Shown here: positions 1,984 to 49,041 of the stretch, in pieces
Position numbering within the stretch: position 1 is the first letter of the stretch
Layout: the number at the start of each line of letters is the position of its first letter
Assembly (NCBI GenBank): GCA_026418625.1
Contig: JAOABA010000022.1
Location: forward strand, 10,572 to 74,571
DNA from: Candidatus Kapaibacterium sp.
GTDB lineage: Bacteria; Bacteroidota; Ignavibacteria; Kapaibacteriales; UBA2268
Length of the DNA stretch: 64,000 nucleotides
Reading direction: 5' to 3'
The notes under the pieces: generated by a model
Databases searched by the model: none
What the model was told of the DNA's origin: nothing
Seen by the model: the letters and a program-made list of their open reading frames with translations, nothing else
Made by a program: the position numbers and the translations under genes

Positions 1984-3465
1984 ATGAGTGAAAAAACAAG
2001 CACTGGAAAAAAAATTTTTTATATCGTTTTATTTCTTGCAACAGTCGTTATTGTATTCATATTAGGTTTACTTGCAGCTTCGATTTTCGAAAGGAGAGGT
2101 GAATCGGTAGCTCGTCTTGAACCCGTTAAAGAAATTGCCGAATGGGAACCAAGGAATGAGGTTTGGGGTGAAAATTACCCACGTGAATACGAAACATATA
2201 GAAAAACGCTTGACACAGGTTTTCGAAGCAAATATGCCGGCTCGGCTACCATAGATTACTTAGAAGATTATCCTGATTTAGTTGTTCTTTGGGCTGGTTA
2301 TCTGTTTTCAAGAGATTTCAAGCAAGCCCGTGGTCATGCTTATGCTATTAAAGATATCCGTCAAACGTTAAGAACTGGCGGGGTTGAATTCAGTCCTCAA
2401 CCCGGCACTTGTTGGTCCTGCAAAAGCACTGATGTTCCAAGGCTAATTCAATCAATGGGCGCCGAAGCCTTTTATAAATCCAAGTGGTCTGATTTGGGCG
2501 ATCAGGTCGTCAATCCAATCGGATGTCAAGACTGCCACGACCCCAAAACAATGGATTTAAGAATTACCAGACCTGCCTTGATTGAAGCTCTCGAAAGGCA
2601 GGGCAAAAAAATGAAAGATATTACACATCAAGAGATGCGATCGCTTGTTTGTGCACAATGTCACGTGGAATATTATTTCAAAGGTCCTGATAAATATTTG
2701 ACTTTTCCGTGGGACAAAGGCTTTAGTGCTGATTCAATGGAGTCATATTATAATGAAATTGCTTTCAAGGATTGGGAACATAAGCTCAGCAAAGCACCAA
2801 TGCTCAAAGCTCAACATCCCGATTATGAGTTGTATATGACCGGTATTCACGCTGCAAGGGGTGTTTCCTGTGCTGATTGTCATATGCCTTATAAAGTCGA
2901 AGGTGGGGTCAAATTTACTGATCATCACATTCAAAGCCCTCTAAATAATATTGCTAACTCCTGTCAGGTATGCCACAGACAAAGCGAAACACAATTACTT
3001 AAAGATGTTTATGACCGTCAGGATAGAGTAGCTGAAATTAGAAAAATAGCTGAATACTCATTGAGAAAAGCACATCTTGAAGCTGAATTAGCTTGGAAAA
3101 ATGAAGCAAGTGAAGATGAGATGAAACCTATACTTGAACTAATTAGGTCAGCTCAATGGAGATGGGATTGGGTCGCTGCTGCTAATTCAGTTGGATTTCA
3201 CTCACCTGTAGAAGCTCTCAGGGTTCTTGGCACTGCTATTGAGAGATCCGAAAAAGCTCGTGGTTTGCTAAATGTTGTATTTACAAAAAGAGGTGTAAGT
3301 TTACCCGTAACTCTGCCGGATGTCGGAACTAAGCTGATAGCTCAAAAATATATCGGACTCGATATTGAAAAGATTTTGCAGGATAAGCTTAATTTCTTGC
3401 AGACTGTTGTTCCTGAATGGGACAAGAAAGCTAAGTCCCGTCAAGGAACTTTGCAGGAATATTAG
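1984..3465 (+). CDS. nrfA: Cytochrome c552 nitrite reductase catalytic subunit NrfA (pentaheme, ammonia-forming).
   Basis: CWSCK (the Lys-ligated active-site heme motif diagnostic of NrfA) plus four CxxCH (CQDCH, CAQCH, CADCH, CQVCH). A signal/TM segment is at the N-terminus. AAGAGG RBS 7 nt before the ATG at 1984; the track start at 1960 overlaps nrfH. Confidence 0.9.
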   Translation: MSEKTSTGKKIFYIVLFLATVVIVFILGLLAASIFERRGESVARLEPVKEIAEWEPRNEVWGENYPREYETYRKTLDTGFRSKYAGSATIDYLEDYPDLVVLWAGYLFSRDFKQARGHAYAIKDIRQTLRTGGVEFSPQPGTCWSCKSTDVPRLIQSMGAEAFYKSKWSDLGDQVVNPIGCQDCHDPKTMDLRITRPALIEALERQGKKMKDITHQEMRSLVCAQCHVEYYFKGPDKYLTFPWDKGFSADSMESYYNEIAFKDWEHKLSKAPMLKAQHPDYELYMTGIHAARGVSCADCHMPYKVEGGVKFTDHHIQSPLNNIANSCQVCHRQSETQLLKDVYDRQDRVAEIRKIAEYSLRKAHLEAELAWKNEASEDEMKPILELIRSAQWRWDWVAAANSVGFHSPVEALRVLGTAIERSEKARGLLNVVFTKRGVSLPVTLPDVGTKLIAQKYIGLDIEKILQDKLNFLQTVVPEWDKKAKSRQGTLQEY

Positions 3466-40322: not shown

Positions 40323-40531
40323 TTTACTATGTCCGTCTTGGTGATTGGGTGGGGAAGTTTGTCAAAATTGAATAGCAACTACTTTCAAGTAGTGGAGAAA
40401 TAAATCATTTTTAAAGGTGCTTTACTGTAGAAACAACATCCCAGTCTGTGCAACAAAAGATGTCCTACACCTTTGAGGTGTAGGACATCTGAAAAATAGC
40501 TTTTTTGTCACTCTGAACGAAGTGAAGAGTC
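40323..40531 (+). repeat. Copy 1 of a ~205-bp hairpin-rich dispersed intergenic element (R element).
   Basis: About 90% identical to 40733-40936. It contains the 13-bp stem hairpin GATGTCCTACACC-TTTGA-GGTGTAGGACATC (40459-40489) and the hairpin ACTACTT-TCA-AGTAGT. Confidence 0.85.
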
Positions 40532-40663
40532 AATAATAATTCAATGACTTATGTGATATGGATTCTTCGCCTTCGGCTCCTAATAACTCCTTTTTACACA
40601 GCCTCGCATACAGGAATCTGAATTCATGATTTTCAACATCCTTTGCGAATTTGTTTTATCCAT

Positions 40664-40687
40664 AGAGACACAGAATTCTGTGTCTCT
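40664..40687. repeat. Perfect 24-bp palindrome between the two R-element copies.
   Basis: AGAGACACAGAA|TTCTGTGTCTCT, read directly from the sequence. Confidence 0.85.
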
Positions 40688-40732
40688 ACAGAGGATTGAT
40701 GTTTCAAATTTGCCATCAGGGCTTTACTATGT

Positions 40733-40936
40733 CCGTCTTCATGATTGGGTGGGGAAGTTTGTCAAAATTGAATAGCCACTACTTTTAAGTAGTGGAGAAA
40801 AAAATCATTTTTAAAGGTGCTTTCCGTTAGAACAGACTCCTCTTTCCGTGCAAAAAAGATGTCCTACACCTCTAAGGTGTAGGACATCTGAATAAATAGT
40901 ATTTTCGTAACACTTCACTTCGTTCAGAGTGACAAA
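40733..40936 (+). repeat. Copy 2 of the R element.
   Basis: Same order of motifs as copy 1. The hairpin at 40858-40888 keeps the identical 13-bp stem but carries a different loop (TCTAA). The terminal 21-nt segment (40913-40933) is the exact reverse complement of 40507-40527 in copy 1. Confidence 0.85.
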
Positions 40937-40970
40937 GAATCATTTTTTATACTTTTTACACAGCCTAAGA

Positions 40971-41195
40971 GGCAGGAGTTTTAGAGAATACAAAAGATTC
41001 CTGTTTGCACAGGAATGACGATGATTTTGACGGTGTCACTCCTGCGAAGGCAGGAGTTTTAAAGAACACAAAAGATTCCTGTTTGCACAGGAATGACGAT
41101 GATTTTGACGGTGTCACTCCTGCGAAGGCAGGAGTCTTAGAGTAATGAAGAGATTCCTGTCTCCACAGGAATGACAGGGAAGTTGGGGAAATCTC
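40971..41195 (+). repeat. Tandem direct repeat: 78-bp unit x 2.7, each unit with two hairpins.
   Basis: Units begin at 40971, 41049 and 41127 (GGCAGGAGTTTTAGAG...). The inner hairpin ATTCCTGT-TTGC-ACAGGAAT and the unit-junction hairpin CACTCCTGC-GAAG-GCAGGAGT(G) are both present. The third unit is diverged, with loop CTCC on a conserved stem. Confidence 0.85.
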
Positions 41196-41209
41196 TTAAT
41201 TAACAGTTA

Positions 41210-41500
41210 TTATTCTCCAAGAAGATATCTTGTAATTTCTTCCCATTCCTCTTCGAAAGTAGTTTTTGGTTTTGGACGTCCTGCAATGGAATACCAATAG
41301 GATGCATTCCATTCATTGGGCTCTTTTCTGTGAAGATAGGCATGAACCCAAGCAGCAGTTTTCGTATTCATTGCTTGAACAATATTATGAGCCTTGTCCC
41401 AGTTTCCTTGTGCTTCAAACCAAAGTGCCACGAGTTCTTTGCTAATTCCCGCTGGTGGATTTTCTTGATTTAATGTAGATTTAAATTCCTCAAATGTCAT
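41210..41500 (-). CDS. Hypothetical small protein (96 aa).
   Basis: The ORF begins 2 nt after the ispD stop and is Trp/His-rich. No recognisable family; coding status is plausible from operon context only. Confidence 0.4.
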   Translation of the reverse strand: MTFEEFKSTLNQENPPAGISKELVALWFEAQGNWDKAHNIVQAMNTKTAAWVHAYLHRKEPNEWNASYWYSIAGRPKPKTTFEEEWEEITRYLLGE

Positions 41501-48705: not shown

Positions 48706-48960
48706 AGGCTTTAAGGGAAGTTTGTAATGATTGAATAGCCACTTCTTTTAAGTAGTGGGTAAAAAAAATATTTCCAATAATGCCTTCGGTTAGAATAGAC
48801 AACCCTTTTTGTGTAACAAAAGATGTCCCACACCTCTAAGGTGTAGGACATCTGAAAAGATAGTATTTTTGTCACTCTTCACTGAGTTCAGAGTGACAAA
48901 CAACCACTTTTTATGCTTTTTACACAGCCTCATGCACAGAAATGACTTTGAAAGTGCAAT
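48706..48960 (+). repeat. Copy 3 of the R element plus a degenerate 78-bp-type unit, in the convergent intergenic region after nuoB.
   Basis: Same motif order as 40323-40531, but it lacks the first ~28 nt. The hairpin at 48822-48852 has one mismatch in its stem. It is followed by TTTTTACACAGCCT and a degenerate unit, as at the 40.9 kb locus. Confidence 0.8.
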
Positions 48961-49041
48961 AAAAGCTGTCCGACATCTTGAAAATGTCGGACAGCTCAAC
49001 ATAATTATTTGGTTTAGAAGAACAAAACGCTTCGAGTATTT

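Follow-up and report, generated by a model that had tools for sequence, protein, structure and literature searches.

The 982-bp gap between pheT and a conserved 96-aa gene (ORF96) in the stretch of Candidatus Kapaibacterium DNA analysed here (64,000 nucleotides; hereafter, the window) contains a tandem array with a 78-bp period that is probably a small mosaic cluster, akin to NIME and BIME arrays, of a single hairpin motif of the NTS/SRM family repeated in alternating orientation. Rather than being a new gene or system, the array is a local variant of an already known class of repeat and sits in a degenerating intergenic region. Along the minus strand, a GWxTD-domain gene is followed by ispD, ORF96, the 982-bp gap and pheT, and the gap is rich in pseudogene fragments and palindromes other than those of the array. 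As to the role of the hairpins, namely, nuclease sites, terminators acting at the RNA level, or relics, we infer it below from the evidence at hand.

TRF delimits the array at 40970-41175 (2.6 copies, 91% matches, score 342), which makes it the top tandem repeat of the 64-kb window by far, with the runner-up scoring 75. In a repeat search, the units start at 40970, 41048 and 41126, with identities of 100, 97 and 68%, respectively. Units 1 and 2 differ at just 2 of the 78 positions, so that their near-identity, pointed out in the earlier note, stands, at a measured 97% rather than the ~95% given there. Unit 3 is diverged, as also reported, with the identity of its spacers down to ~60%, the stem kept and the loop changed from TTGC to CTCC. 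By inverted-repeat and degenerate pattern search, five perfect hairpins with 8-bp stems and 4-nt loops were identified in the array: the SEQ6-type stems (ATTCCTGT-N4-ACAGGAAT) at 40997, 41075 and 41153, and the ACTCCTGC-GAAG-GCAGGAGT hairpins at 41038 and 41116, bearing out the description of a 78-bp tandem array with two hairpins per unit. The hairpin pattern has 5 matches in the window vs 0 in 100 shuffles of the window. Folding as ssDNA predicts the five hairpins on either strand (z = -6.8 and -6.4).

The tandem arrangement had been thought to create, by itself, the second hairpin across the junction of adjacent units. This is an artefact of the chosen unit boundary, with the unit begun inside hairpin A. 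When the unit is re-phased to 41034, both hairpins are located inside every full unit, and the leftmost partial copy alone lacks the 5' arm of A, where the conserved terminus of element R2 (CTTTTTACACAGCC) stands instead. In its natural form, the unit is an inverted doublet in which A and B are joined tail to tail by a 17-nt spacer, plus a 14-nt head-to-head linker. In this phase, the array reads half A0, spacer, B1; linker; A1, spacer, B2; linker; A2, diverged spacer, B3 and tail (Table 1). The 14-nt linker recurs at 41098-41111, the spacers between the 20-bp hairpins span 17-21 nt, and the GC content of the hairpins is 0.43-0.58 vs 0.24 for spacer sp1. The earlier judgement that the array is not CRISPR-like holds because the array repeats its spacers too, with both sp1 and the linker recurring. 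A CRISPR array was rejected for this repetition and for the neighbours, pheT, ispD, the GWxTD gene and ORF96, and an integron attC site was rejected on architecture.

Table 1 Features of the array and its surroundings (positions in the window)
Feature	Coordinates	Strand	Remarks
R1 + R2, tandem ~400-bp elements	40323-40722, 40723-40969	+	From repeat search
Whole array	40970..41203		2.6 copies of the 78-bp unit
A0	40970..40979	+	3' arm of hairpin A only, GGCAGGAGT
B1	40993..41020	-	SRM-like hairpin CGTCATTCCTGTGCAAACAGGAATCTTT
Linker, 14 nt, head-to-head, B1 to A1	41020..41033		GATGATTTTGACGG
A1	41034..41061	+	SRM-like hairpin TGTCACTCCTGCGAAGGCAGGAGTTTTA; T after palindrome
B2	41071..41098	-	Same sequence as B1
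A2	41112..41139	+	TGTCACTCCTGCGAAGGCAGGAGTCTTA; C after palindrome
Outer 13-nt inverted repeat around B3	41143-41155 / 41190-41202		92% complementary
B3	41149..41176	-	TGTCATTCCTGTGGAGACAGGAATCTCT; stem as in B1/B2, loop GGAG
ORF96, 96-aa conserved gene, function unassigned	41210..41500	-	Last gene of the GWxTD-ispD-ORF96 run
R3, third R copy	48715..48947	+	Downstream of nuoB; ends in half-site GCACAGAAATGAC

Hairpin A, read on the plus strand, is TGTCACTCCTGC-GAAG-GCAGGAGT, and hairpin B, read on the minus strand, is CGTCATTCCTGT-GCAA-ACAGGAATC. With each read in the orientation that puts GTCA first, A (TGTCACTCCTGCGAAGGCAGGAGT) and B (CGTCATTCCTGTGCAAACAGGAATC) agree at 18 of 26 positions; the stem differs twice, both times by a compensatory change that gives C-G in A and T-A in B. 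Therefore, A and B are one motif in opposite orientations. This point was missed in the earlier note, and so were the relationship of the motif to NTS, SRM and dRS3 and the lack of conservation of the array in the closest relative, both of which are addressed below. The GTCA flank is present in all five array hairpins, and the C immediately 3' of the palindrome is found in B1, B2, B3 and A2, with a T in A1. Other GTCA-hairpins occur in the window at the background level, and all five intact copies of the motif are confined to one gap.

Doublets 1 and 2 differ at 9 positions, all in spacers or loops, and the 39 positions of stems and flanks are free of differences (P = 7.4e-5), in agreement with the earlier observation that stems are conserved while loop and spacer drift. 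Judging from the sequence, this invariance of stems and flanks amid drifting spacers points to selection or ongoing gene conversion acting on the hairpins.

Two published definitions allow comparison with the motif, both from Chenal et al. (Nat Commun 2025, PMC11893778): the NTS (Neisseria Transformation Sequence; CGTCATTCCCGCGMAVGCGGGAATCYRG), inside which lies the classical dRS3 repeat, and a degenerate Ssn-related motif (SRM). Single-domain GIY-YIG Ssn proteins (cd10448) require NTS/SRM hairpins to be ssDNA for binding and cleave a few nucleotides upstream of them; binding depends critically on the C that follows the palindrome and cleavage on the three nucleotides that precede it, and the activity of Neisseria SsnA is abolished when the palindrome sequence is changed with the structure kept (PMC11893778). 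Hairpin B on the minus strand (CGTCATTCCTGTGCAAACAGGAATC) is identical to NTS at 20 of 28 positions, with compensatory stem differences, and keeps both critical flanks, namely, GTC (cleavage) and the C that follows the palindrome (binding). Thus, the array motif is, to all appearances, a stem variant of the NTS/SRM/dRS3 hairpin in which C-G is replaced by T-A at two pairs. The likeness extends to a GTCA-flanked, oriented palindrome of ~20 nt that has a 3' C and a 4-nt loop rich in purines (PMC11893778), intergenic location, clustering, spread over phyla and, for the variant in locus L025, a position beside a GIY-YIG gene. The array differs from NTS/SRM in its stem, TCCTGY/RCAGGA vs TCCCGC/GCGGGA, and in its low copy number here. 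The published SRM pattern, HGTCWYN(0-2)YYVSBRHN(0-5)WNVSBRGN(0-2)RNCYNB, has no matches on either strand of the window, whereas the control NTS does match; A1, B1 and B3 fail the pattern solely at stem positions, with C -> T and G -> A.

The stem variant is not limited to the window. A scan of one genome per species (GTDB) for ATTCCTGT-N4-ACAGGAATGAC yielded at least 117 loci, compared to a chance expectation of ~4 for 19 fixed bases. The host lineages among the loci listed include Nitrospirota, Planctomycetota, many CPR, Binatia, Flavobacteriaceae, Ignavibacteriales/Melioribacteraceae and a Bathyarchaeota MAG (L070). Conservation reaches outside the query: among the matches listed, 83 of 124 are preceded by TGG, 61 of 124 have the loop TTTC, read as GAAA in the GTCA orientation, and many have GTCATTCCCGC-GAAA-GCGGGAATCCA ~20 nt upstream. 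A 23-26-nt sequence, ctGGATTCCTGTTTTCACAGGAATGAC, is near-invariant across very distant phyla among the matches listed, CPR and the Bathyarchaeota MAG L070 included; some MAGs have several copies of it, as seen for Nitrospirae MYbinv3 and CSMAG_1143, each with at least 5 loci. Only 2 matches were obtained among the IMG/VR viral contigs, with no phage link.

Within the listed loci (at least 117), canonical SRM matches number 31 vs 1 in shuffles. The variant is often paired with such a canonical SRM: 22 of these 31 are no more than 100 nt away from it, and the pairs comprise 14 in tail-to-tail, 5 in head-to-head and 3 in same-orientation arrangement. Given these tail-to-tail and head-to-head pairs, both junction types of the array in the window have precedents elsewhere. 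Tandem arrays that contain the motif were found in 3 of the at least 117 listed loci; in a Deltaproteobacteria MAG, the array has a 97-bp unit composed of B and an SRM-like partner hairpin. The array linker ATGACGATGATTTTGACGGTGT gave 7 matches in a metagenome scan, all of them unrelated chance matches in coding sequence, and no copy-number variants.

An association with a candidate nuclease comes from L025 (Thermodesulfovibrionia), where the motif lies beside the gene for a 96-aa single-domain GIY-YIG protein (PF01541, 66 bits). This gene is flanked on the 5' side by the SRM-like hairpin CGTCATTCCCGA...TCGGGAATCCAG and on the 3' side by an inverted CTGGATTCCTGTTTTCACAGGAATGAC, the TCCTGT variant. 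Such a hairpin-gene-hairpin order is the same as the SRM-ssn-SRM gene layout described by Chenal et al. 2025 (PMC11893778). By regular-expression search and tblastn, an adjacent single-domain GIY-YIG gene was found in only 1 of the at least 117 listed loci, namely, L025. A PDB search with the L025 protein gave a weak match to UPF0213 protein BH0048 (1ZG2, E = 0.008) and no SsnA structure. The weak GIY-YIG match in L113 was rejected as an Ssn protein, being a 553-aa exonuclease/UvrC-like fusion. Among the ORFs examined in the 64-kb window, no GIY-YIG or transposase gene was found.

The related loci L120 and L121 encode ORF96 proteins with 83% identity to that of the window and share the synteny, with a gap of 314 bp vs 982 bp in the window. 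This gap contains one T9SS-tail fragment and three hairpins of the same family, all in the gene-strand orientation, and the 78-bp array is absent. The outcome entertained earlier, an array absent from or unstructured in close relatives, thus applies in its first part and fails in its second: in L120, hairpin GTCATTCCTGTGCAAACAGTAATG is nearly intact, with one stem mismatch and the 3' C lost, and the other two hairpins are decayed but still present. B1 corresponds to this L120 hairpin and is, therefore, likely to be the ancestral copy; the correspondence was read by eye, as a global alignment of the gaps did not pair the hairpins. In more distant relatives, the array site is occupied by other variants or by nothing, and a relative of the nuoB locus has GTCATTCCTGTGCATACAGAAA where the window has R3. 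From these comparisons, the array site appears to be conserved and its content dynamic.

The array is located beside ORF96, 34 nt past its stop codon on the minus strand, and is followed by the R elements, in the order given in the earlier note. At E<=1e-3, the ORF96 family counts 1663 homologues, among them proteins from Bacteroidota, KSB1 and Thioploca, and is matched by no Pfam or NCBIfam model; in every relative examined, ORF96 directly follows ispD. The copies of the R element (n = 3, ~230-400 bp) open with part of a T9SS C-terminal sorting domain, after which come several hairpins and, at the end, a decayed SRM-like half-site; in R1 and R2, the sorting-domain fragment is on the plus strand. 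The degenerate array unit previously noticed after the third R copy amounts to no more than the half-site GCACAGAAATGAC at ~48935-48947, which has no intact stem.

The R elements show several further features. The ORF at 40626-40775 matches Por_Secre_tail positions 26-66. In the Melioribacteraceae MAG L113 (~3200-3230), an intact T9SS-tail gene of 877 aa is followed, after ~200 nt, by the same hairpin. The central 15 nt of the GTCACTCT...AGAGTGAC hairpin in R1 (40513-40527) are exactly the reverse complement of those in R2 (40913-40927; CTGAACGAAGTGAAG vs CTTCACTTCGTTCAG), with the orientation of the flanks unchanged, that is, an inversion of the hairpin centre; R3 (48864-48904) has the centre in the R2 orientation. 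The T9SS-tail pseudo-ORF in R2 contains a perfect 26-bp palindrome, TAGAGACACAGAATTCTGTGTCTCTA, at 40663-40688. At 40458-40490, 40857-40889 and 48821-48853 there are hairpins whose stems are 15 bp long, AGATGTCCTACACCT / AGGTGTAGGACATCT, with one mismatch in the third copy; T runs follow them on the minus strand. They are strong terminator-like structures opposed to the preceding T9SS-tail fragments. Between R3 and a 282-aa gene, at 48964-48996, there is a hairpin with 16-bp arms, AGCTGTCCGACATCTT / AAAATGTCGGACAGCT, which is partly kept in L118.

An architectural parallel is offered by the NIME arrays, in which dRS3 hairpins are set apart by 19-214-bp RS elements and which are syntenic, with a strain-variable repeat number (Bentley et al. 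2007, PMC1797815). The present array shares with them 20-bp inverted-repeat hairpins, short, AT-richer spacers, a syntenic yet variable arrangement and gene-fragment cassettes alongside. The differences are that the dRS3 consensus, ATTCCC-N8-GGGAAT, is not matched (B, ATTCCT-N8-AGGAAT, agrees at 10 of 12 positions, and A, ACTCCT-N8-AGGAGT, at 8 of 12), that the spacers, at 17-21 nt, reach at most the lower end of the RS size range, and that the host is a Kapabacteria MAG, whereas NIMEs have been described as Neisseria-specific (PMC1797815). The array also bears resemblance to repeats of E. coli with respect to imperfect palindromes, alternating orientation, short linkers and a 3' intergenic position, and terminator or mRNA-stabilising effects are plausible for it as well. 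The REP/BIME elements of E. coli and REPIN doublets are palindromes headed by GTAG or GTGG that are mobilised by RAYT (IS200/IS605-like) Y1 HUH transposases. The head of the array hairpins is GTCA, rather than GTAG or GTGG, no RAYT gene was found among the ORFs examined in the window, and the partner family indicated is GIY-YIG.

Under the reading that we favour, a NIME/BIME-like cluster of NTS/SRM-family hairpins, the hairpins would extrude when the DNA becomes single-stranded, during replication, DNA uptake or repair. The extruded hairpins would then be the binding site of a putative cognate Ssn-type GIY-YIG ssDNA nuclease that would recognise the palindrome together with the 3' C and nick a few nucleotides 5' of GTC, with the A sites offered by the plus strand and the B sites by the minus strand. 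Because a change of the NTS palindrome abolishes SsnA activity, the array hairpins would need a different, candidate cognate enzyme. The 78-bp period presumably stems from a recent duplication of one A-B doublet with its linker, through slippage or unequal exchange between identical hairpins. As a possible side effect, the B hairpins with their T-rich tail might terminate or stabilise the ispD-ORF96 transcript, in the manner of REP/BIME.

That last effect could also be the entire function, in which case the hairpins would act at the RNA level only, as terminators or 3'-end stabilisers of the GWxTD-ispD-ORF96 transcript that insulate pheT, and the triplication would be incidental. We consider this unlikely. 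The start of the array 34 nt past the ORF96 stop codon does suit a terminator, each B hairpin is followed on the gene (minus) strand by a T-rich tail (CTTTTGTGTT and similar), the minus-strand GCAA loops are of the GNRA type, and a consensus scan flags all three B hairpins as terminator-like on the minus strand (5 sites in the region vs 1.0 expected). However, the B stems are short (8 bp, with only 3 G-C pairs) and the T tracts behind them are broken, a T tail on the gene strand is missing from the A hairpins, and much stronger 15-bp terminator-like hairpins follow inside the R elements. Furthermore, termination leaves unexplained the near-identical sequence in more than 100 loci of unrelated phyla and the conserved GTC and C flanks. 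A terminator role is, in any case, compatible with the main explanation.

The hairpins might, alternatively, be non-functional relics of a past invasion of hairpin repeats that went through one slippage amplification and then neutral drift in a decaying intergenic region, which we hold to be improbable to the same extent. The low copy number of the motif in the window together with the decaying L120 copies, which have lost the 3' C, imply that the elements may be relics rather than active sites; copies are decayed in L118 as well, the gap is full of pseudogene fragments and palindromes, and the array linker was not recovered from the metagenome collection. What drift does not readily account for are the five stems and GTC flanks that remain perfect while the unit 3 spacers are only ~60% identical (P = 7e-5).

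The least credible proposal, and a quite improbable one, is a small RNA of the FtrB type encoded on the plus strand with the hairpins as structural modules: 41093-41208 (plus strand) aligns over the entire length (115 positions) of Rfam RF02748 (FtrB) with 38.7 bits and E = 4.5e-5, and FtrB is a ~110-nt RNA on a Northern blot in Francisella (Postic et al. 2010, PMC3091763), but the score is far under the gathering threshold of 66, the similarity rests on the shared NTS-type hairpin given that the FtrB consensus contains GUCAUUCCCGCGUAGGCGGGAAUCUC, a scan for sigma-70-like promoters, which does not cover Bacteroidota-type promoters, found none on the plus strand of the gap, and FtrB deletion has no growth or virulence phenotype (PMC3091763). 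The resemblance consists in an NTS-type hairpin followed by a longer hairpin closed by GAGAU/AUCUC, such that A2+B3 aligns end to end; an Rfam search of the window returned no match at the gathering score. The hairpin in the FtrB consensus, GUCAUUCCCGCGUAGGCGGGAAUCUC, is a canonical NTS/SRM hairpin, and the original Northern probe was that hairpin. FtrB itself looks like a transcribed Ssn-related repeat element, a link that we did not find stated in the literature. The FtrB case shows that NTS-type elements can be transcribed; the locus in the window does not thereby become an FtrB gene.

A broader and speculative extension, to which we assign a low probability, is that the TCCTGY-stem hairpin defines a distinct Ssn/SRM specificity class across many phyla and that NIME-like arrays in Kapabacteria, located beside silent cassettes of T9SS C-terminal domains (the R elements), are recombination hot spots under the control of an ssDNA nuclease that shuffle the tails of secreted proteins.

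If the interpretation of the array as a NIME/BIME-like cluster of the NTS/SRM family is correct, Ssn-type hairpin repeats and NIME-like arrays reach the Kapabacteria/Ignavibacteria lineage. The current SRM pattern would then undercount the family, since it leaves out the T-A stem variant, which is present in more than 100 species-level genomes, from CPR to Nitrospirota. An Ssn nuclease that has a new ssDNA specificity would also be expected from this variant and could be of use for ssDNA tools.
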